From positions 82,212,001-82,276,000 of the forward strand of contig OX597824.1 in assembly GCA_951406725.2 (NCBI GenBank): a stretch of 64,000 nucleotides of DNA. Direction: 5' to 3'. Position numbers and translations under genes: made by a program. Shown one piece after another: positions 1,423 through 56,190 of the stretch. The notes below the pieces were generated by a model. The model ran no database searches and had not been told where the DNA came from. It saw only the letters and a program-made list of their open reading frames with translations. Position 1 is the first letter of the stretch, and every line of letters begins with the position of its first letter. Source of the DNA: Octopus vulgaris. Its lineage: Eukaryota.

Positions 1423-1479
<57 letters not shown>

Positions 1480-1648
1480 AAATGACTTAATTGCATTGCA
1501 ATTAAAAACATTTATGTATTAAGAATTTGGATACTTTACCAACAATATATTGGATAAATGATATCCCATAGTGAGTTACAACCACAACCCCTATTTTACT
1601 TTGTAGTATATATATGTATATATATTCGTATATATATGTATGTATGTT

Positions 1649-1683
<35 letters not shown>

Positions 1684-1825
1684 ACATAAATATGTATGTA
1701 TATATATATGTGTATGTGTATGCGACTATGTATGTATGTTTGTAAGTATATTGGTAAGCATGGATATTCAGCTGTTGCTGCTGCTTATTTCGTTGTTCCC
1801 CACCCTCACCCCCGATTGGATGAGA

Positions 1826-1968: not shown

Positions 1969-2001
<33 letters not shown>

Positions 2002-2823
2002 ATATTCATAGATACATACTCGCACATGTGCATATAACTATTTGTTATGTGACTAATCGTAGCGAGTGACATAACACCCAGTAACTGCATATTGTTTTAA
2101 ACTCTATGCATTGTGTGCGATGGCGTTGGCAGGGTGTGAGAGAAAATTCTTTACTAAGCGAACTCAAACTCATGTGTGCTAATAATGTTTATTAAAAGAA
2201 TGTGTCTTTAGTGAAAATAGTTTCGTTCCATTTGGTCCCCGGTTCAAATTCCATCCCCGCACCTGTTTGAGTTGCATCTGTCATCAAATCTCCGCGGTGG
2301 GTCCAGAATGTTAAACTGTCTTGCATATGATGACATATATTCGCACATTAACCGCACACTGTTAGAGAAGGAAACCTGCACACACACACGCATAAGTTCA
2401 CACATACGTTTATAAGTAGAGAAATATATATATATATATAAACATAATCGCATACACAAAGGCAAATGTGTACAAGCGTCGTATATATATATATATATAT
2501 ATATATAACAATTTAATAAATAAAACATATGCATAAATACATACATATATGTACATACCTACATGTATATATACATGCATATATGAGTACAGGACACCAC
2601 AAATAAACGTAGAACACAACGAGTAACGAAAACATAAAACCAAACAAGGAAACGGACTTTTTTTAACAACGAAAAAACAGAGTACAAGACAAACAACACA
2701 ACGAACATTCCCCTTCTTCAGCTGCCCCTGTTTCGACCCAATGCGTGACCAGAGTAAGCGCATAAGTGCAAAACAAGATGGCAGAAATAGTACTCGTATA
2801 CCAGAGGTAGAGTGATATGCTCT

Positions 2824-2923
<100 letters not shown>

Positions 2924-3081
2924 ATATTGAGAATAACACGGTAGTCAGAATGTTGGATGATTTGGGGTTTTTTTACATATTTAGTGCTTTCTTCCGCTAT
3001 CGGATTTATCAAGAAAATGGTTTACAGTAGATTATGTATATACATATGTGTATATATTTGTGTGTGTATATATATATATAT

Positions 3082-3316
3082 AGGGAAAGTTTACGAAAAT
3101 AAACAAAAGACGAAGACAGGTGGTGTACAAAACAAACAGATGTATTAGTATAACGCTCAGGAATAGAAAAAGACTTTTACGTTTCGAGCCTACGCTCTTC
3201 TACAGAAGACAACAAAAGAATGAAAGAGACCTCGATATTATGTAAATAGAGGAATTTATCCGTGAATGTAATATGAGACAATTAATCGGTAGCCATGATA
3301 AAACTCCGAGTTTCGG
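3082..3316 (-). mobile_element. Fused fragments of two Penelope-like non-autonomous repeats with a degenerate hammerhead core
   Basis: 3082-3208 is homologous to 35830-35960 (ctgtagaa gagc gtag gctc gaaacgta on minus); 3208-3316 is homologous to 33785-33897. Confidence 0.6.
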
Positions 3317-3651
3317 ACTTATTCTTTGTAAGCCTAGTTCTTATTCTATCGGCCTCTTTTGCCGAACCGCTAAGTGATGGGGATGCAAATGCACCAACGT
3401 TGGTTGTCATACGATGTTGGGGTGGGCAAACACAGTCACAAATAACAAACACACACATACATATATGTACATCTGTATATACGACGGGCTTCTTTCAAAT
3501 CCACTCAAGGCTTTGGCCGGCCTGAGGCTATAGTAGAATACACTTGCTGAATGTGCCACGCAGCAGGACTGAACCCGGAACCATGTACTTGGAAAGCAAG
3601 CTTCTTACTACACAGCCACTCACATATATATGTATGGTTGTGTGTGTTTGT

Positions 3652-3694
<43 letters not shown>

Positions 3695-3897
3695 TGTGTC
3701 TGTATTTGTCCACCAAACATCACTTAACAAACGATGTCGGTGTGTTTACGACCCCGTAACTTAGCATTCGGCAAAAGGAAAAGATAGAATAAGTACTAGG
3801 CTTACAAAGAATAAGTACTGGAGTCGATTTGTTCGACTAAAGTCGCTGCTCCAGCATCGCCGCAGTCAAATGACTGAAACAAGTAACAGAATAGAAT
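3315..3897. mobile_element. Two diverged SINE family A pieces in opposite orientation (3315-3621 minus, 3690-3897 plus)
   Basis: Homology to full copies such as 42202-42628. Confidence 0.85.
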
Positions 3898-4375
3898 AAT
3901 ATATGTGTGTGCGTACGCGCGTGCGCGCGTGTGTGTGTGTGTGTGTATGAAATACAATTAAGATTCTGTTGAACTAGGTACTTAAATTGAGGCACCTTGT
4001 TAGGTCTGACTAACGTGCATAAAAGATCGGAGCCGATCCTTCCTCTATTGTTAGAAGTTTAGACAACTTGGTCACTTGTGTTAATTATCTCCTCCCGTTA
4101 CTATAAACACAAACAACCCTTAAATTCTTCTTTGTTTTTATCAAATATACACTTTTCTGCCAACTGAAAGCCAGCAGAATTAATGGAAATAGTTTTATTC
4201 CGTGAATTTGTTAACTTTGTCGAATGATTTGAACTAATCCTGAATTCACGTGACGATAAACGTCTTTTTTTACAATGATGTAATGATCTCATTAATCAAT
4301 TAAAGGAGTCGTTGGAAACGGTCGTAATCAACTGACAGCTTTGTTACTCACTTATATTGTGTGTGTGTGTGTATA

Positions 4376-4411
<36 letters not shown>

Positions 4412-4473
4412 TGTATGTATGTATGTATGTATGTATGTATGCATGTATGTATGTATGCATGTATGTATGTATG

Positions 4474-4504
<31 letters not shown>

Positions 4505-4746
4505 TCATATCTGTCAGACATATGGAAGAGAGTATAATTCGGCAGGGGTACTTAAACGAGATGCAAAGATACATGATGCCCAGTTACAACTACAGCCGGC
4601 TATTGCTGGTAAAGGTTTTAGCTGCCAATTCTATGCAAGACATTGTAGATCTTTAGCTGGGCTAAAGTGCCACATTCGATCAGAGCACCAATAACAGTTA
4701 AGCTTCGTGCAATGGCCACACTCGATAACGAGGGGGCAGCCATCAT
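4505..4746 (+). mobile_element. RTE-clade LINE 3' end (C-terminal C2H2-like motif plus short 3' UTR)
   Basis: Frame reads KGFSCQFYARHCRSLAGLKCHIRSEHQ*, followed by atggccacactcgataacgagggggcagccatcat and a microsatellite tail, typical of RTE/BovB ends. Confidence 0.7.
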
Positions 4747-4943
4747 GTCTGTCTGTCTGTCTGTCTGTCAGTCTGTCTGCATATATGCATGTATGTATGT
4801 ATGTGGTTATGTATGTATGTATGTATGTATGTATGTATGTATGTATGTATGTATGTATGTATGTATGTACGTATGTATGTTCGTATGTATGTATCACTTG
4901 TTTCAGTCGTTTGACTTCAACCATATTCACGAATAAACCAACA

Positions 4944-5410
4944 CTAGTGCCGCTGAGGGTAATATTCTCTGGGAATGTGCAAAAGCCCTTTTCGGAGTTA
5001 TTTACTTTGAATTGTTATCATCTCATAACTGATTATCCTGTTATTACGTGACAAGCTTCATGATTTTAGTATACATATCTTAGTATTTCCTCCTAAGTTC
5101 TATATACTCTGGGAACGCATTACAGCCCTTTTCGGGGCTACTTTATTTGAACTCTCACTATCGAGTAACTAATTTTATGTTATCAGATAACTGGCTTCAC
5201 AATTTGGGTATTCACAACTTATTGGGAATTCTTAAAACAAGATCCTGTGTAAGACAATTCGCCGTTCTCTGTAAATGCACAAAAACCGGTTTCAGGGCTA
5301 CAAACTTTGTATTGTTGGTATTGGATTAACGGAACAGTTATGAGGACGGAACCCGGGGATAAGCCCCGCTTTCCCTGGAATTCCCGGGAAGAAAAGCTTG
5401 TATAGGTATA
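4944..5410 (-). mobile_element. Possible non-autonomous Helitron-like element with an internal ~140-bp-spaced direct repeat
   Basis: Minus strand ends ...cagcggcaCTAG|t; ctctgggaa...agcccttttcgg...tttgaa occurs at 4967 and 5107; GC-rich hairpins at 5350-5390. Confidence 0.35.
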
Positions 5411-5431
5411 TATATAAGTGTGTATGCATGC

Positions 5432-5480
<49 letters not shown>

Positions 5481-5484
<4 letters not shown>

Positions 5485-5641
5485 TGTGTGGTAAGTAGCT
5501 TGTTTAGCAACCAGATGGTTCCGAATTCAGTCCCACTGCGTGGCACCTTGGGCAAGTGTCTTCTACTATAGCCTCAGGACGACTAAAGCCTTGTGAGTGG
5601 ATTTGGTAGATGGAAACTGAAAGAAGCCTGTCGTATATATG

Positions 5642-5676
<35 letters not shown>

Positions 5677-5890
5677 TTGTGTGTCTGTGTTTGTCCCCCT
5701 AGCATTGCTTGACAACCGATGCTGGTGTGCTTATGACCCCGTTAATTAGCGGTTCGGCAAAAGAGACCGATAGGATAAGTACTGGGCTTACAAAAGAATA
5801 AGTCCCGGGGTCGAGTTGCTCGATTAAAGGCGGTGCTCCAGCATGGCCGCAGTCAAATGACTGAAACAAGTAAAAGAGAAAAAGAAAAAG
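5481..5890 (+). mobile_element. SINE family A (tRNA-derived, internal TA/TG tract), near full length
   Basis: A-box tggctgtgtggtaag, B-box-like gttcagtccc, tail ending (gtaaaaga)n; more than 12 copies in the window. Confidence 0.92.
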
Positions 5891-5901
5891 ATATGTATAT
5901 A

Positions 5902-6414
5902 TCTATATATATAAAACTGTAGTTGTGTGAGTGTCTGTCTCCTTCGATTTAGATTCCTAACTACTCCCACATTTTGCGGTGCAGTTTAACCAAATTCGGG
6001 TATCTTATAGTCAGGATTCATATCGAGCCCGTCTGAGTACTAGCGCGCGTCTACGATGAGTCTACGATTTTTAAAATAATTTAACATCATTTTTTGTTCC
6101 ATTTTAATGCATAATTTTTCGTGTGTCGATGGCGGCGGAGTTGGCGTCCATGGTCACACCTGCACCTGCTTGCTTCTCCCCCTTCTTCCCTCCCTCGTGA
6201 AGCTGTGGGGAAGGGAGTGTAAGGAAATCAACGTCGTAAAGCGTTGTCAAGGAGACCAGCGTTCTTTTAGAACAACGACTTCATGGCTTGAAGACACCAA
6301 AACAGAAATGGCTAAGAAAGCCCGAATTGGCATCTATAAGGGAAGTAACTCTCTAAAAATGCTTATATAGTTATTTCCCTTACAAACCCGAGCAACGCCG
6401 GGCGATACTGCTAG
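5902..6414 (+). mobile_element. Non-autonomous Helitron
   Basis: 5' a|TCtatatatataaaactg; subterminal hairpin cccgagcaacgccggg (6387-6402); 3' CTAG|t; inserted between A and T with no TSD. Confidence 0.85.
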
Positions 6415-6813
6415 TATATATATATATATATTAACTATATATACCACACGCTCACACGGACCCCGGCCTTCTGACTGTCTGACTGACCTATATATATATA
6501 TACATCATAACTTTATGCGATCCGCTATTTTAGACGGAAACTGTACGGAAAAACCATCGGTTAGAGTCTAACTTATGGCTTTCCTTATAGCTTCCGTTAA
6601 ACTTTACGAGTGATTTGGTTAAGAGAAGCCATTTTCCCGTGCGAGAATCCAACAGATTTTTGCCTGAGGATATACAAGTGTCCGTTTATTTCCTTACACA
6701 ACAATTCAAGTATGTAGTTCCGTTGATTGAACAACTGAAAGAGTCATGAAGCAAGAATTCTAAACAACAATCTATCACGTGTGTGTGTGTGTATGTATAT
6801 ATACAAATGTATG

Positions 6814-6862
<49 letters not shown>

Positions 6863-7031
6863 TTGTGTGTGTGAATATACGCACATACACACACCCATAT
6901 ATATATATATATATATACATATATATACACATACATTCATATAAATATATATATATATATACATATAAATATATATTACATATAAATATATATTCATACA
7001 CATATATATATATACATACATATATATATAC

Positions 7032-7076
<45 letters not shown>

Positions 7077-7156
7077 TATATTTATATATATATATATATA
7101 TATATATTACATATAAATATATATTTATATATATATATATATTACATATAAATATA

Positions 7157-7277
<121 letters not shown>

Positions 7278-7398
7278 TATATACATATGTACATACATAC
7301 ATACATATATATATATTTTTATATATGCATACATACATATAAACATACACATAAATATACAAACATACATACAGAGGGGTATAGATAAATAGATAGAC

Positions 7399-7430
<32 letters not shown>

Positions 7431-7818
7431 AAAGAGTACAGAGTGAGTGAGAGTGTTTAGCACTTAAATACTTGATCTATAAAAGTCTAATAGTATCGTG
7501 TATGTATCTGTGTGTAAAGAGCTTTGTGGAGATACTATCAGAAAAGGTATTACTCCGTACTTAATAATATATTGTTTGTTTACATTATATTCCAAATTTG
7601 GTCATAAATGCTTTATTGCTAGTCCCGCTGTCGACGGCGACCTGGAGAAGTTAATAAATCGTCAGATTAAATTGCGTTGCGTCATTTTTTTTATAGCTTT
7701 TTGCCATTGGAGTTCAAGTCACGCTGATTTCTGCCTTGCCTTTCATCTTTTCAGGGTGTCAGTTACAACAGTGCAAGTAACCCCACCCTCTCTCTCTGTC
7801 TCTCTCTCTCTCTGTCTC

Positions 7819-7868
<50 letters not shown>

Positions 7869-7945
7869 TCTCTCGCTCTCGCTGAGAAATCAATCGATGG
7901 CGTTCAAATCTAGAAGAAGGATTGGCATTACTATATTTAAAATCG

Positions 7946-8310
7946 TGGAAGCTCAATGGCCCAGTGGTTAGGACAGCGAACTCGCGGTCGTAGGATCGCG
8001 GTTTCGATTCCCAGACCGGGCGTTGTGTGTGTTTATTGAGCGAAAACACCAAAAAGCTCCAACGAGACTCCGGCAGGGGGGGGGTGATCCCTGCTTTACC
8101 CTTTCATCACTCCTTCTCTCACTCTTTCTTCTGTTGGCCTGCTCGCCAACTACGATGTTTTTCTCATTTCTGCTAGTTGCGGATCTCCCAGAACGTTCGA
8201 CAATAGTGGCACATTTTCGGCCATCTTGGAAACGTCTGAAGGCTAAAACAATGCGAACGCATTGTGACCAGCGATGTGTAGCAACATCTGATGGTCTGGT
8301 CGGTCACGTA
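7946..8310 (+). mobile_element. SINE family B-type head with an alternative tail, interrupted by a mariner fragment
   Basis: tRNA-like head tggcccagtggttagg...ggtttcgattcc; tail matches the reverse complement of 25185-25306. Confidence 0.85.
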
Positions 8311-8341
8311 AAATCATTAGGTCATGCTATATTACAACGGG

Positions 8342-8726
8342 ATCGTGGAGTCGCAATGGCCCAGTGGTTAGGGCAGCGGACTCGCGGTCGGAGGATCACG
8401 GTTTCGATTCCCAGACCGGGCATTGTGAGTGTTTATTGAGCGAAAACACCTAAAGCTCCACGAGGCTCCGGCAGGGGGTGGGGTGAACCCTGCTGTACTC
8501 TTTCACCACAACTTTCTCTCGCTCTTTCTTCCTGTTTCTCTTGTACCTGTATTTCAAAGGGCCAGCCTTGTCACATTCTGTGTGTCACGCTGAATCTCCT
8601 CGAGAACTGCGTTAAGGGTACACGTGTCTGTGGAGTGCTCAGCCACTTGCACGTTAATATCACGAGCAAGCTGTTCCGTTGATCGTATCAGCTGGGACCC
8701 TCATCGTCGCAACCGACGGAGTGCTC
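8342..8726 (+). mobile_element. SINE family B (tRNA-derived), full length with 15-bp TSD
   Basis: TSD ctatattacaacggg at 8327-8341 and 8727-8741; homologous to 18799-19180 and 36866-37248. Confidence 0.93.
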
Positions 8727-9142
8727 CTATATTACAACGGGGGTGCTTTTACAAGCCTATCAAATGTTCAAGGAAGATTGTGTAACACGTTGCTACATCT
8801 GCAAAGGCAGCTCTCACTATTGTTGTTCTTCTTGTGATGGTTGGCTAACCCCAAACTCGTCTGTGTTCACGGAGACACAACGATTAAAAGATGTCGCTAT
8901 GCGTTGAGCTCTTCAACCAGTTTATTAAACAACTTAAGGGTAAAAGGGACTTTAAAGATGAAGTAGCGGGCGATCATACCTTGGATAGGGCCGTTCCCTA
9001 ACATTATAATCACCCCATTTGTATTTATCATACCAAATTCTGGTGCCTTTAACTCCCTCTACCTCTCATCTCCCGGGAATCTATATTTTTTCTAACTTCA
9101 CTATATTTGTATGTGTGTGTGTAAATATATATATATATATAT

Positions 9143-9941
9143 ACTAGGTTTGATCAATACGTATCCGGATAGTTGCCATAGTAACAAAGCTAAGGCACGC
9201 AGAATCGAGCCACTTGGCACAGATTGACCTTGAACTCTGCTGTGCATGACCACTAAGTGTTAAGGTTCTAGCTCACTTTCGCTGTTTACAGAAGTGTTTG
9301 GAAGGAAGATGTGTAGCGTGTGATCGTCGCATTGACCATTACAGAGAATGTTTTCATGGCCATACCTGCTCAGAGGCCTATGCAAAGTTGCAGAGAGTGT
9401 ATGGAGAGGAGTGTTTGAGCCGCTCATGTAAGTACGAGTAGTTCAGACGTTTCCAAGATGGCCGAAAATATGCCACTATTGACGAACGTCCTGGGAGATC
9501 CGCAACCAGCAGAACTGAGAAAAACATCGCAGATGTGCATGGAGCTGTGAGGGAAATCGTCGAATCATCGTCTGTGAGTTATGAGAGGATCTTCAGATAA
9601 GTTACGGCTCAGTTCAGTACATTATCACTAAAGATTTGGGTATGAGACGCGTGTCTGCAAAGTTTGTGCCAAAATTATTTTCAGCTGACCAAAAAAGAGA
9701 CTCGGCTTTCAGTCGAACAATATTTCCTTGATTGTGTCAAGAACGATGAAAACTTTTTGAAAACTTTGCGTAGATCTCTGAGCAGATATCGCAAAGCTTT
9801 TGGCAAAATTTGATGCAGATTCTCTACTCAACTTTCTCTGTTATGATCAATGCGACGATCATCCGCTACACACGTTCCTTCCAAGCACTGCTATAAACAG
9901 CGGAAGTGAGCTAAAGCGTGAAAACTTAGTGCAGGTGCACA

Positions 9942-9944
<3 letters not shown>
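9143..9944 (+). mobile_element. Deleted mariner derivative with long inverted arms and a degenerate N-terminal HTH region
   Basis: Reads ...EAYAKLQRVYGEECLSR...FRRFQDGR...DERPGRSATSRTEKNI...ITKDLGMRRVSAKFVPK with stops and frameshifts; 9830-9944 is a reverse complement of 9238-9349. Confidence 0.85.
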
Positions 9945-9998
<54 letters not shown>

Positions 9999-10009
9999 AA
10001 AAAAAAAAA

Positions 10010-16280: not shown

Positions 16281-16715
16281 TACTCTTTACTCTTTTACTC
16301 TTGTACTCTTTTACTTGTTTCAGTCATTTGACTGTGGCCATGCTGGAGCACCGCCTTTAATCGAGCAACTCGACCCCGGGACTTATTCTTTTGTAAGCCC
16401 AGTACTTATTCTATCGGTCACTCTTTTGCCGAAGCGCTAAGTAACGGGCACATAAACACACCAGCATCGGTTGTCAAGCAATGAATGCTAGGGGGACAAA
16501 CACAGACACACGAACACACACACGCATATATATATATATACATATATACGACGGGCTTCTTTCAGTTTCCGTCTACCACATCCACTCACAAGCCTCTGGT
16601 CGGCCCGAGGGCTTACAAAGAATAAGTCCCGGGGTCGATTTGCTCGACTTAAAGGCGGTTCTCCAGCATGGCCGCAGTCAAATAACTGAAACAAATAAAG
16701 AGTAAAAGAGTAAAG
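16281..16715. mobile_element. SINE family A (minus, head missing) joined to an inverted copy of the family tail (plus)
   Basis: 16281-16400 and 16610-16715 are reverse complements. Confidence 0.85.
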
Positions 16716-16941
16716 AGAGAGAGAGAGTAAGTGATGTCGACTGATGGGGCCGTTAACAACACTTTCATCTCTCATTTTTCACCCTCTTTCTCAGCATATC
16801 ATACGACAATTTTTTTGATGTTTTGTGTCCCCAATGTATTTTGGTGTTCCCTCTATGTAAGACCCTTATGGGTGATAAAAAATCAACAGCTCGTGATCTA
16901 CACTCACAGACCTGCAGGGCTCGAGGACAGCAGAACTCGTG

Positions 16942-46533: not shown

Positions 46534-46836
46534 TGATAGTGCTGGAGCTCATATCGACTTCGAAAATATATATTTTGCAGTTATTTGAACTTCATTTAAT
46601 TATAATAGATGTGGTTGAAGTTTCTACTGAGACACGAAATCGTATTGCTGTATCCGGGCACAATTACCTTGGTTTTATGTGCACATAGAAGTCTCTTTTG
46701 AAATACTGACAACAGTCCATCTGTAATTAAAATATCTTACAGCATTTAAGTTTCCCTAGCACCTATTACGTCATTCCGGAGTGGAGCGACCTTGAGACGA
46801 TGTATTACAAAACTTTTGAAATATATCTAGACTCTA

Positions 46837-47535
46837 AAGCGGCAAGCTGGCAGAAACGTTAGCACGCCGGGCGAAATGCTTAGCGGTATTTCGTCTGTTG
46901 CTACGTTCTGAGTTCAAATTCCGCCGAAGTCGACTTTGCCTTTCATCCTTTCGGGGTCGATAAATTAAGTAACAGTTACGCACTGGGGTCGATGTAATCA
47001 ACTTAATACCTATGTCTGTCCTTGTTTGTCCTCTCTGTGTTTAGCCCCTTGTGGGTAATAAAGAAATAGGTATTTCGTCTGTTGCTACGTTCTGAGTTCA
47101 AATTCCGCCGAGGTCGACTTTGCCTTTCATCCTTTCGGGGTCGATAAATTAAGTACCAGTTACGCACTGGGGTCGATGTAAACGACTTAATCCGTTTGTC
47201 TGTCCTTGCTTGTCCCCTCTGTGTTTAGCCCCTTGTGGGTAGTAAAGAAATAGGTATTTCGTCTACTGTTACGTTCTGAGTTCAAATTCCGCCGAGGTCG
47301 ACTTTGCCTTTCATCCTTTCGGGGTCGATAAATTAAGTAACAGTTACGTACTGGGGTCGATGTAATCGACTTAATACCTATGTCTGTCCTTGTTTGTCCC
47401 CTCTGTGTTTAGCCCCTTGTGGGTAGTAAAGAAATAGGTATTTCGTCTACTGTTACGTTCTGAGTTAAAATTCCGCCGAGGTCAACTTTGCCTTTCATCC
47501 TTTCGGGGTCGATAAACTAAGTACCAGTTGCATAC
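46837..47535 (+). mobile_element. SINE family C tandem array (head plus ~3.5 units), 184-bp period
   Basis: ggtatttcgtct at 46885, 47069, 47253 and 47437. Confidence 0.92.
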
Positions 47536-48498
47536 TGGTGCCTAGAGTACAAAATAATATCTATACAGAGACATCTTTTTCTTCGAAGTCGAATACTACT
47601 GCAAATGCCTTTTACCGTGTGCAGGAGTGTTAAAATTTTATAAAAACGTACACATATACACACATTCACGTACACACTCACACAGACACACACATAAATA
47701 TATTCATATATATGTGTGTGTGTACGTGTGCATACAAATATATACAATTGTGTGCGCAAGGGTGTGTATTCTAAAATTGAATAATATTGCGAAAGAGCTC
47801 AATATAAGATGGTGCTTAACCTGTGAATAGCCGTAATTTTATATGAATTACGTTAGTTGTTCAACAAAAACAATATCAAGATAAGCTACAGCTGCGTGAA
47901 AAAATAAGTCTAATGTCATGGGAAAACTATTGCAAAGAAAATTATATAAATGGAAACAACATGTGGTTGTTGAAATGTTGAGTTTTCCCACCTAAAGGTC
48001 AAATTCCTTGAGAAAAACTGTGTACCGTAACGTGTCTTCTAGCAGCAAATCAATAAGCAACACGTGACTTACAAAGCTCTCCTACAAAATTCCCCGTCAG
48101 AGTCACAATTTTTCTGTTTCTCTGCCTGAAAATCTCGTTTGTAAACTGCAAACACTCATTCCGACATCACCAACGGGGGGGGGGGGGGACAAAAGTGACT
48201 TTCAAGGTAGTTTTCGAAATCGATCGACATAGACAAGACTATCAGTTTTCACAGAAGGGTTAGTAGAGTTAGATAAGGGACAGTTATAAAGGAACATATG
48301 GCTTCTAGATATAAAGGGATATATGGCTTCTGTCCTACGGTGAAACTCCATATCATTCGATACTCTACTACAATCTTAAATAAAAACACCCAACTAAATG
48401 CACATACGCACACACACACTCACACACAAACATATATATATATATATATATACATATATATAAATGTATATATATACACACACACACATACACAAACT

Positions 48499-54853: not shown

Positions 54854-55300
54854 CGGACGAAATGCCTCTGATATATATATATATATATATATATACCACA
54901 CTATATTGATTTGTAGACACGTATTCAATAACAATTTAGTTTCTAACATGAAATTTAAGTCATTAATGGTGGTTTCTAACTTGTTCTGATAAAGATTAAG
55001 AGAATGTTGACAACTTCTGACGTCGGTTACCAAGATTGTAAATACCAGACAACACAGCAATAGCCATGATACTACATCCTGAACATAATATATTTTCGCT
55101 AAATAAAAATACGAGTTTCCTATCGGAAATTCTCTACCGAGACATCAAGAAACCCCATATACTCACATGTACAGTCTCACGTTCCTAGGATCACTGGTAG
55201 GGTTGAATTTTGGTGTTCCCTTAGTATATATTCATAATTTACTGTAAATTTCCTATCAATCTGAAAACCCTGGTTCAAAAACAACGAAAGGATTGCAATA

Positions 55301-55718
55301 GGCGCAGGAGTGGCTGTGTGGTAGGTGGCTTGCTGGCCAACCACATGGTTCCGAGTTCAGTCCCACTGCGTGGCATCTTGGGCAAGTGTCTTCTGCTATA
55401 GCCCCAAGCCGACAAATGCCTTGTGGGTGGATTTGGTTGACGGAAACTGAAAGAAGCCCGTCATATATATGTATATATCTATATATATGTGTGTGTGTGT
55501 GTTTGTGTGTCTGTGTTTGTCCCCCTAGCATTGCTTGACAACCGATGCTGGTGTGTTTACGTCCCCGTCACTTGGCGGTTCGGCAGGGGAGACCGATAGA
55601 ATGAGTACTGGGCTTGCAAAGAGTAAGTCCCGGGGTCGATTTGCTCGACTAAAGGCGGTGCTCCAGCATGGCCGCAGTCAAATGACTGAAACAAGTAAAA
55701 GAGTAAAAGAGTAAAGAG
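55301..55718 (+). mobile_element. SINE family A, full length, A>G hypermutated copy
   Basis: 11-12 A>G differences relative to sibling copies (see findings). Confidence 0.9.
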
Positions 55719-55765
55719 TAATAGTCTTGAATTTCGTTTCGATTTTTAAAGGTGATTAAACGGTA

Positions 55766-56190
55766 GGCGCAGGAGTGGCTGTGTGGTAAGTAGCTTGCTA
55801 ACCAACCACATGGTTCCGGGTTCAGTCCCACTGCGTGGCACCTTGGGCAAGTGTCTTCTACTATAGCCTCGGGCCGACCAATGCCTTGTGAGTGGATTTG
55901 GTAGACGGAAACTGAAAGAAGCCTGTCGTATATATGTATATATATATATATATATGTATGTATGTGTGTGTGTATGTTTGTGTGTGTTTTTGTCCCCCCA
56001 ACATCGCTTGACAACCGATGCTGGTGTGTTTATGTCCCCGTTACTTAGCGGTTCGGCAAAAGAGACCGATAGAATAAGTACTGGGCTTACAAAAGAATAA
56101 GTCCTGGGGGCGAGTTGCTCGACTAAAGGCGGTGCTCCAGCATGGCCGCAGTCAAATGACTGAAACAAGTAAAATAGTAAAAGAGAGAGA
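55766..56190 (+). mobile_element. SINE family A, full length, near consensus
   Basis: Homology to family. Confidence 0.93.

Follow-up and report, generated by a model that had tools for sequence, protein, structure and literature searches.

The window, meaning the whole stretch of 64,000 nucleotides of Octopus vulgaris DNA that was analysed, is rich in microsatellites and SINE-like repeats, and a Pfam search with 16 of its long open frames gave no match above cut-off. Within it lies a full-length SINE copy that carries a burst of A>G changes on its sense strand (Table 1). The copy belongs to a dispersed, high-copy family of short elements with a simple-repeat tail, in which an unedited 19-mer motif has 56,823 exact matches genome-wide and whose size is estimated at ∼2e5 copies (from 20/79). 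Octopus SINE families were reportedly named by Ohshima and Okada in 1994. The head of the copy contains what we take to be RNA polymerase III A-box-like and B-box-like stretches, matched by eye to the consensus; for this head ARAGORN found 0 tRNAs and Rfam gave no tRNA match. The 3′ end, with its small hairpin and repeated tail, is likely the priming end for the LINE reverse transcriptase. The nearest downstream sibling has the same orientation and therefore cannot pair with the focal copy within one transcript. Opposite-orientation family copies, adjoining or overlapping, occur in the window at 16294-16717 and 3315-3896 and form natural inverted pairs, which would be RNA-editing substrates if transcribed.

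Table 1. Features in and around the focal SINE copy, in window positions.
Feature	Position	Strand	Basis
Possible target-site duplication, left copy, 4 bases, short and weak	55297..55300	+	flank comparison
Full-length SINE copy, 12 A>G changes on its sense strand	55301..55719	+	sequence and sibling alignment
SINE head, A-box-like 55311-55321, B-box-like 55354-55364	55301..55375	+	by eye
First A>G cluster (55324, 55327, 55335, 55336)	55324..55336	+	comparison with sibling majority
Isolated A>G with 5′ neighbour G, edit or later mutation	55426..55426	+	comparison with sibling majority
Central (TA)n/(TG)n microsatellite	55463..55512	+	sibling comparison
Second A>G cluster (55574, 55586-55588, 55603, 55616, 55623)	55574..55623	+	sole changes in the aligned 3′ half
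3′ end free of edits, with a small hairpin and a repeated, purine-rich tail	55654..55719	+	sequence, sibling alignment
Possible target-site duplication, right copy, 4 bases, short and weak	55720..55723	+	flank comparison
Unedited sibling, same orientation, 46 bases downstream of the focal copy	55766..56190	+	alignment

The focal copy was compared with the majority base of its 29 nearest genomic siblings, chosen by likeness to its edited 3′ half, and shows 19 differences from it over 365 aligned sites: 12 A>G, four G>A (55354, 55406, 55407, and 55463), one C>A (55414), one A>T (55438), and one T>C (55459). The 11 sites listed in the original prediction, and 55335, which it gave as possible, are all G in the focal copy and A in the sibling majority, while the other substitutions, put there at about five, number seven. 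The claim of some CpG decay is borne out by two of the four G>A changes, which sit in CpG, and the claimed lack of a T>C excess also stands, since the lone T>C is at a subfamily-variable site and none is left after masking. Once CpG sites and sites that vary between subfamilies are masked, A>G accounts for 11 of 15 changes (p = 4e-9, under a null in which A>G makes up 9.3% of changes, as in 124 unselected copies), and in the 3′ half all seven changes are A>G. All seven non-A>G changes fall within 55354-55463 in the 5′ half and none in the 3′ half (p 0.004), a crowding that possibly reflects a chimeric origin or partial conversion. The predicted preference for a 5′ T or A was found at 11 of the 12 edited As compared with 37 of 75 unedited As (p = 0.01); the single site with a 5′ G, as had been claimed, is 55426, and this change may be an ordinary later mutation.

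An old subfamily with the same Gs at diagnostic positions would give a similar picture, and the sibling comparison speaks against it. Among the 29 nearest siblings, 23 have one of the 12 Gs, five have two, and one has three; because no best-scoring sibling has more than three of 12, the Gs are not subfamily markers. The best relatives of the 5′ half, at nine loci, are 94-96% identical to the focal copy and have at most one of the 12 Gs in common. The A>G burst is confirmed as real in the assembly.

The whole assembly (2.8 Gb, 227 contigs) was searched with family motifs carrying G in place of two or three selected As, with matched T-to-C controls, and each match was scored outside its selecting motif. 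A triple A>G motif gave 15 matches, where 0.16-1 were expected by chance, and a second gave 16, while the triple T>C controls gave 0 and 1, the lone match having a flat spectrum. In unselected flanks, unedited control motifs occurred at about the frequency of the test motifs (16 vs 15 and 44 vs 40). Double motifs gave 31 and 31 A>G matches and 44 T>C matches. The 93 A>G matches were reduced to 91 aligned over the motif and, after nine repeat captures were merged, to 82 unique copies; the 44 T>C matches gave 41 loci and 42 alignments, one locus giving two. Two of the 16 second-triple A>G matches and three of the 44 T>C matches did not align over the motif and were left out.

A copy was called hypermutated when it had at least five further A>G changes outside its motif (p < 0.001), and this was the case for 25 of the 82 A>G-selected copies, none of the 42 T>C-selected alignments (p = 9e-6), and none of the 124 unselected copies, so that A>G-rich copies are far commoner than T>C-rich ones and not, as the original prediction had allowed, no commoner. 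The unselected copies have A>G at 101/8215 and T>C at 116/7988 sites, with outliers in neither direction. Each of the 25 copies has 8 to 30 A>G changes (352 in total); pooled outside the motifs, A>G affects 259 of 1749 sites (14.8%) and T>C 18 of 1792 (1.0%), and other substitution types are near or under the unselected level. GC-biased conversion or a general weak-to-strong bias was considered and rejected on this spectrum, T>C, A>C, and T>G not being raised. The copies come from 16 contigs, with 12 copies on the plus strand and 13 on the minus strand, and belong to several subfamilies; the six most alike pairs have no private non-A>G change in common, and the bursts arose independently of one another. 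The focal copy is one of a class and not a one-off. Because all members were found through chosen motifs, the counts are minimum values and the profiles by position carry a bias; recapture estimates of class size are 21-89 (Chao1 46) and likely low, and the class amounts to ∼0.01-0.05% of the family, or roughly 1 in 2,000-10,000 surviving copies. A test of clustering within copies (18/21) is inflated by the selecting motifs and was not relied on.

The extent of editing differs widely among copies, from a patch of ∼20 nt confined to the tail (L229) to ∼280 nt with 39% of As changed. The most edited copy, L034 (the same as L083 and L170; G000:C6:107342765-107345783, ∼1430-1785, minus strand), has 30 of 76 As changed to G with one other masked change; all 19 changes in its 5′ half are A>G, its TA repeat has become TG, and its editing ends after a 41-base deletion. 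At the TA-rich start of the microsatellite, the focal copy keeps the family standard and the most edited relatives (L170, L142, and L176) have TG, but no overall TA-to-TG excess was found in the microsatellite (18 vs 93 copies, p 0.66), the change being limited to these three heavily edited copies. In the numbering of the focal copy, hot spots of editing lie at 55574, 55588, 55438, and 55559. In the 3′ tail of the 24 other copies 9 of 197 As are edited, compared with 16-41% elsewhere, a difference biased by motif position. Two young, near-unchanged copies outside the 25, L229 and L209, have A>G only in their last 20-30 bases (around 1500-1520; seven and four changes, respectively). The strong form of the idea that the tail must stay unedited for retrotransposition was rejected, as these two are edited almost solely there. 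A search with a tail motif gave 100 matches, of which 40 were fetched and 29 aligned, and most of these are older or unrelated copies with no A>G excess.

A second SINE family in the window has a single head followed by three and a half head-to-tail units of a 195-base body (46835-47540). Searched with one motif pair, this family gave one A>G and one T>C triple match and hence no signal, the copy of the T>C match itself failing the alignment filter. The A>G match, L245 (1291-1690), has seven A>G and no T>C among 15 changes, three of them forced by the motif, and is possibly an edited copy outside the main family.

Deaminase-domain exons of ADAR type occur at four loci of the genome. One of them has human ADAR2 as its best PDB match (E 2e-102) and contains the ADAR catalytic motifs CHAE, PCG, and SCSDK intact. 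Calculated per available A outside the motifs in 24 copies, the A>G rate depends on the 5′ neighbour in the order T (63/239, 26%), A (110/544, 20%), C (32/351, 9%), and G (16/300, 5%), and on the 3′ neighbour with G highest (94/435, 22%) and the others at 12-15% (C 34/234, T 25/198, A 68/567). With the focal copy left out, a site-level test places 5′ T/A above C/G (p 3e-4), and no 5′ preference was found in background copies (p 0.23). The 5′ order matches the published ADAR preference: in every metazoan studied, octopus among them, U and A are favoured 5′ of the site and G is disfavoured, and in most a 3′ G is favoured (PMC9989829). Invertebrate hyper-editing has the same upstream depletion of G, while its raw downstream preference is A and not G (PMC5625713); the 3′ G favoured here per available site fits that raw motif less well.

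The strict sense polarity places the changes on SINE-sense RNA that had yet to be reverse-transcribed or, with lower probability, on the second DNA strand. Copies that start at or within five bases of the canonical 5′ end make up 18 of the 25 edited and 22 of 30 unselected copies, and such starts fit polymerase III transcripts. The reading preferred here, with a probability of about 0.78, is that ADAR-edited SINE RNA was reverse-transcribed and inserted into germline DNA, which would explain at least 25 sense-only A>G copies; an ADAR origin by either route, new insertion or in-place write-back, is somewhat more probable still. In outline, the polymerase III transcript of a source copy would become double-stranded over a patch of 20-280 nt, the partner most probably being antisense SINE RNA supplied in trans by read-through transcription, or else sequence at the source locus, ADAR would deaminate up to ∼40% of the As in the patch, and the LINE reverse transcriptase would read inosine as G and insert the copy, which would then age like any other. 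The original prediction of a retrotransposed hyper-edited SINE RNA thus gains from Gs that are not subfamily markers, from the asymmetry between A>G and T>C, and from ADAR-type neighbours, while its suggestion of an APOBEC-like restriction mechanism found no support, the copies forming so small a fraction of the family. The process would then amount to editing leaking rarely into the genome, and not to a demonstrated defence.

The partner strand was sought in the element and in its surroundings. Editing has no link to the predicted self-fold, with 117 of 412 paired As (28%) and 142 of 477 unpaired As (30%) changed, and the best hairpin of the focal copy, a UA repeat, looks unedited; the self-fold was rejected as the ADAR substrate because paired and unpaired As are edited alike. 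A local inverted partner was also rejected, the association being borderline at 1.5 kb and absent at 5 kb (21 of 25 loci): within 1.5 kb, inverted neighbours accompany 11 of the 25 edited copies and 45 of 182 others (p 0.054) and same-direction neighbours, also borderline, 13/25 and 65/182, and over 5 kb, at those 21 loci, there are 22 inverted and 32 same-direction neighbours, the latter serving as the sole control, an internal one. No inverted family copy lies within 5 kb of the focal copy, and the most edited copy has no inverted neighbour over 5 kb. At one locus (L140, the same as L031, copy at 1434-1847) the flanks are reverse complementary over ∼30 bases, so that an edited SINE sits inside an inverted repeat. 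Two published observations count against the proposal: human ADAR1 is described as editing mainly polymerase II and not polymerase III Alus (review, PMC5974252), and no editing was found in L1 RNA (PMC5224506).

A sequencing, consensus, or polishing artefact, with the Gs absent from the animal's DNA through edited RNA reads used in polishing or through context-dependent base-calling error, is rated very unlikely, because such an error would need to track the orientation of the SINE, reproduce the neighbour order of ADAR, and leave antisense copies untouched. Polishing with RNA predicts T>C bursts in antisense copies, which occur in none of the 42 alignments, and the polarity tracks the SINE and not the chromosome strand, as the division of the 25 copies between strands shows. 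An artefact could draw on the marginal enrichment of inverted neighbours within 1.5 kb, but those neighbours have no excess themselves (T>C 27/1281 vs A>G 20/1356), over 5 kb they are outnumbered by same-direction ones, and the most edited copy has none. Deletion events run at 1.7 vs 0.9 per kb, from few events, and clustered mismatches of one type can be sequencing error, as described for G-to-A in traces (PMC2873906); against this, other substitution types are not raised. As regards the animal's DNA, the contigs of all four public runs used, out of 24 listed and under three organism labels, cross the 5′ junction of the focal copy but break off at 55321, the first G lying three bases further on, so the insertion is common to the samples. 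None of the pieces listed for these four runs carried the edited stretch, which would suit an artefact, and contigs drop rare variants; the share of words found in the runs is 0.60-0.71 of 48, a measure blind to whether edited words are included. Upstream, at 54961-54982 of the window, 20 assembly bases are missing from the contigs of three of the four runs.

Error-prone LINE reverse transcription, which would place C opposite A in bursts without a deaminase through nucleotide-pool imbalance or primer-template slippage, would give the same strand polarity and one-time origin, and slippage in particular predicts the 3′-G preference and changes of A runs to G such as that at 55586-55588. Slippage is opposed by the 5′ order, which persists when only As whose run ends before a base other than G are counted (T 0.25, A 0.18, C 0.11, and G 0.03); TAC, AAC, and AAT are among the most changed sites, and 30 of 76 As changed beside one other masked change also sits poorly with an error-prone enzyme, so that this explanation is held slightly less likely again than an artefact. 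Write-back in place, in which the edited transcript of a resident copy is reverse-transcribed and converts its own locus with no new insertion, is given the same low standing as an error-prone enzyme. Provided that priming depends on the 3′ end of the SINE, it too would leave target-site duplications and sense polarity intact, and partial conversion could explain the crowding of the seven other changes in the 5′ half of the focal copy. Nevertheless, the A>G changes of this copy cluster in both halves, and host transcripts as the route should leave T>C bursts and have inverted partners close by, neither of which was seen. The remotest of the alternatives is that some other adenosine deaminase worked on RNA in single-stranded form, or on the second DNA strand as insertion took place. 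It would suit the failure to find a duplex partner in the self-fold or in local inverted copies, the genome has several deaminase-domain loci, and ADARs can edit DNA in DNA:RNA hybrids according to a review (PMC12925331); editing of first-strand cDNA in a hybrid, however, would read as sense T>C, which is absent, and the bases next to the changed sites follow the order known for ADAR acting on RNA.

If edited SINE RNA was indeed inserted, ADAR would encounter in the germline the very RNA that retrotransposes, and the copies would yield the past neighbour preference of ADAR and a simple scan for any species. The role of ADAR in SINE and Alu subfamily evolution and in suppressing retrotransposition by mutation was described as not determined in a 2016 review by Goodier (PMC4982230), and independent genomic SINE copies with an ADAR signature make the question testable from genomes alone. 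A wider proposal, held at roughly even odds, is that ADAR editing in the germline can be read from SINE families, that polymerase III RNAs hyper-edited there through pairing in trans are still retrotransposed and make A-to-I edits heritable, and that the copies described here are only the extreme of a broader, low-level supply of A>G changes to new copies and to their TA-to-TG microsatellites. On that view the copies would record past germline ADAR activity and specificity in datable form, as an RNA-side counterpart of APOBEC G>A fossils, and possibly as the visible leak of a restriction pathway. Genomic repeat copies of this kind can also mimic edited RNA reads in hyper-editing pipelines, which calls for caution.

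An earlier screen for retrotransposon editing was reportedly made by Carmi et al. in 2011. No report of ADAR fossils in genomic SINE copies was found in the open full-text literature; further background is given in PMC4758252, PMC3820591, and PMC7615088. The closest published design is the screen of LTR elements for APOBEC G>A editing by Knisbacher and Levanon, in which other mismatch types were rare and invertebrates were devoid of editing (PMC4866542). The edited LTR retrotransposons resemble the present class in being rare copies, detected against their family, with strand-specific, context-biased bursts of a single type fixed at insertion; the SINE copies differ in their sense A>G changes, non-LTR nature, invertebrate host, and likely RNA substrate. 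They also lack the G>A excess that defines the APOBEC type (43/1770 in the 25 copies vs 75/2100 in unselected ones).

ADAR-type A>G hypermutation is recorded in a review for Rous-associated virus as well as avian leukosis virus, where A-to-I edits in retroelement RNA likewise pass reverse transcription and affect nearly 50% of the As in a patch (PMC12925331). Those cases are infectious retroviruses with an identified inverted repeat, whereas the present ones are non-autonomous SINE copies in an assembly and represent at least 25 independent events. In the restriction of LINE-1 by ADAR1, ADAR also contacts retrotransposition intermediates, but the restriction is editing-independent and no edits were found in the L1 RNA (PMC5224506), whereas edits are seen here. 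The signature itself is that of SINE RNA hyper-editing, in which, according to three reports, A>G changes are clustered, 5′ U/A is enriched and G avoided, SINEs are the main target, and the transcriptome level is very high in octopus (PMC5625713, PMC9989829, PMC9068888). That editing is described as confined to RNA and arising mostly in inverted pairs transcribed by polymerase II, while the changes described here are genomic and lie on the SINE sense strand only.
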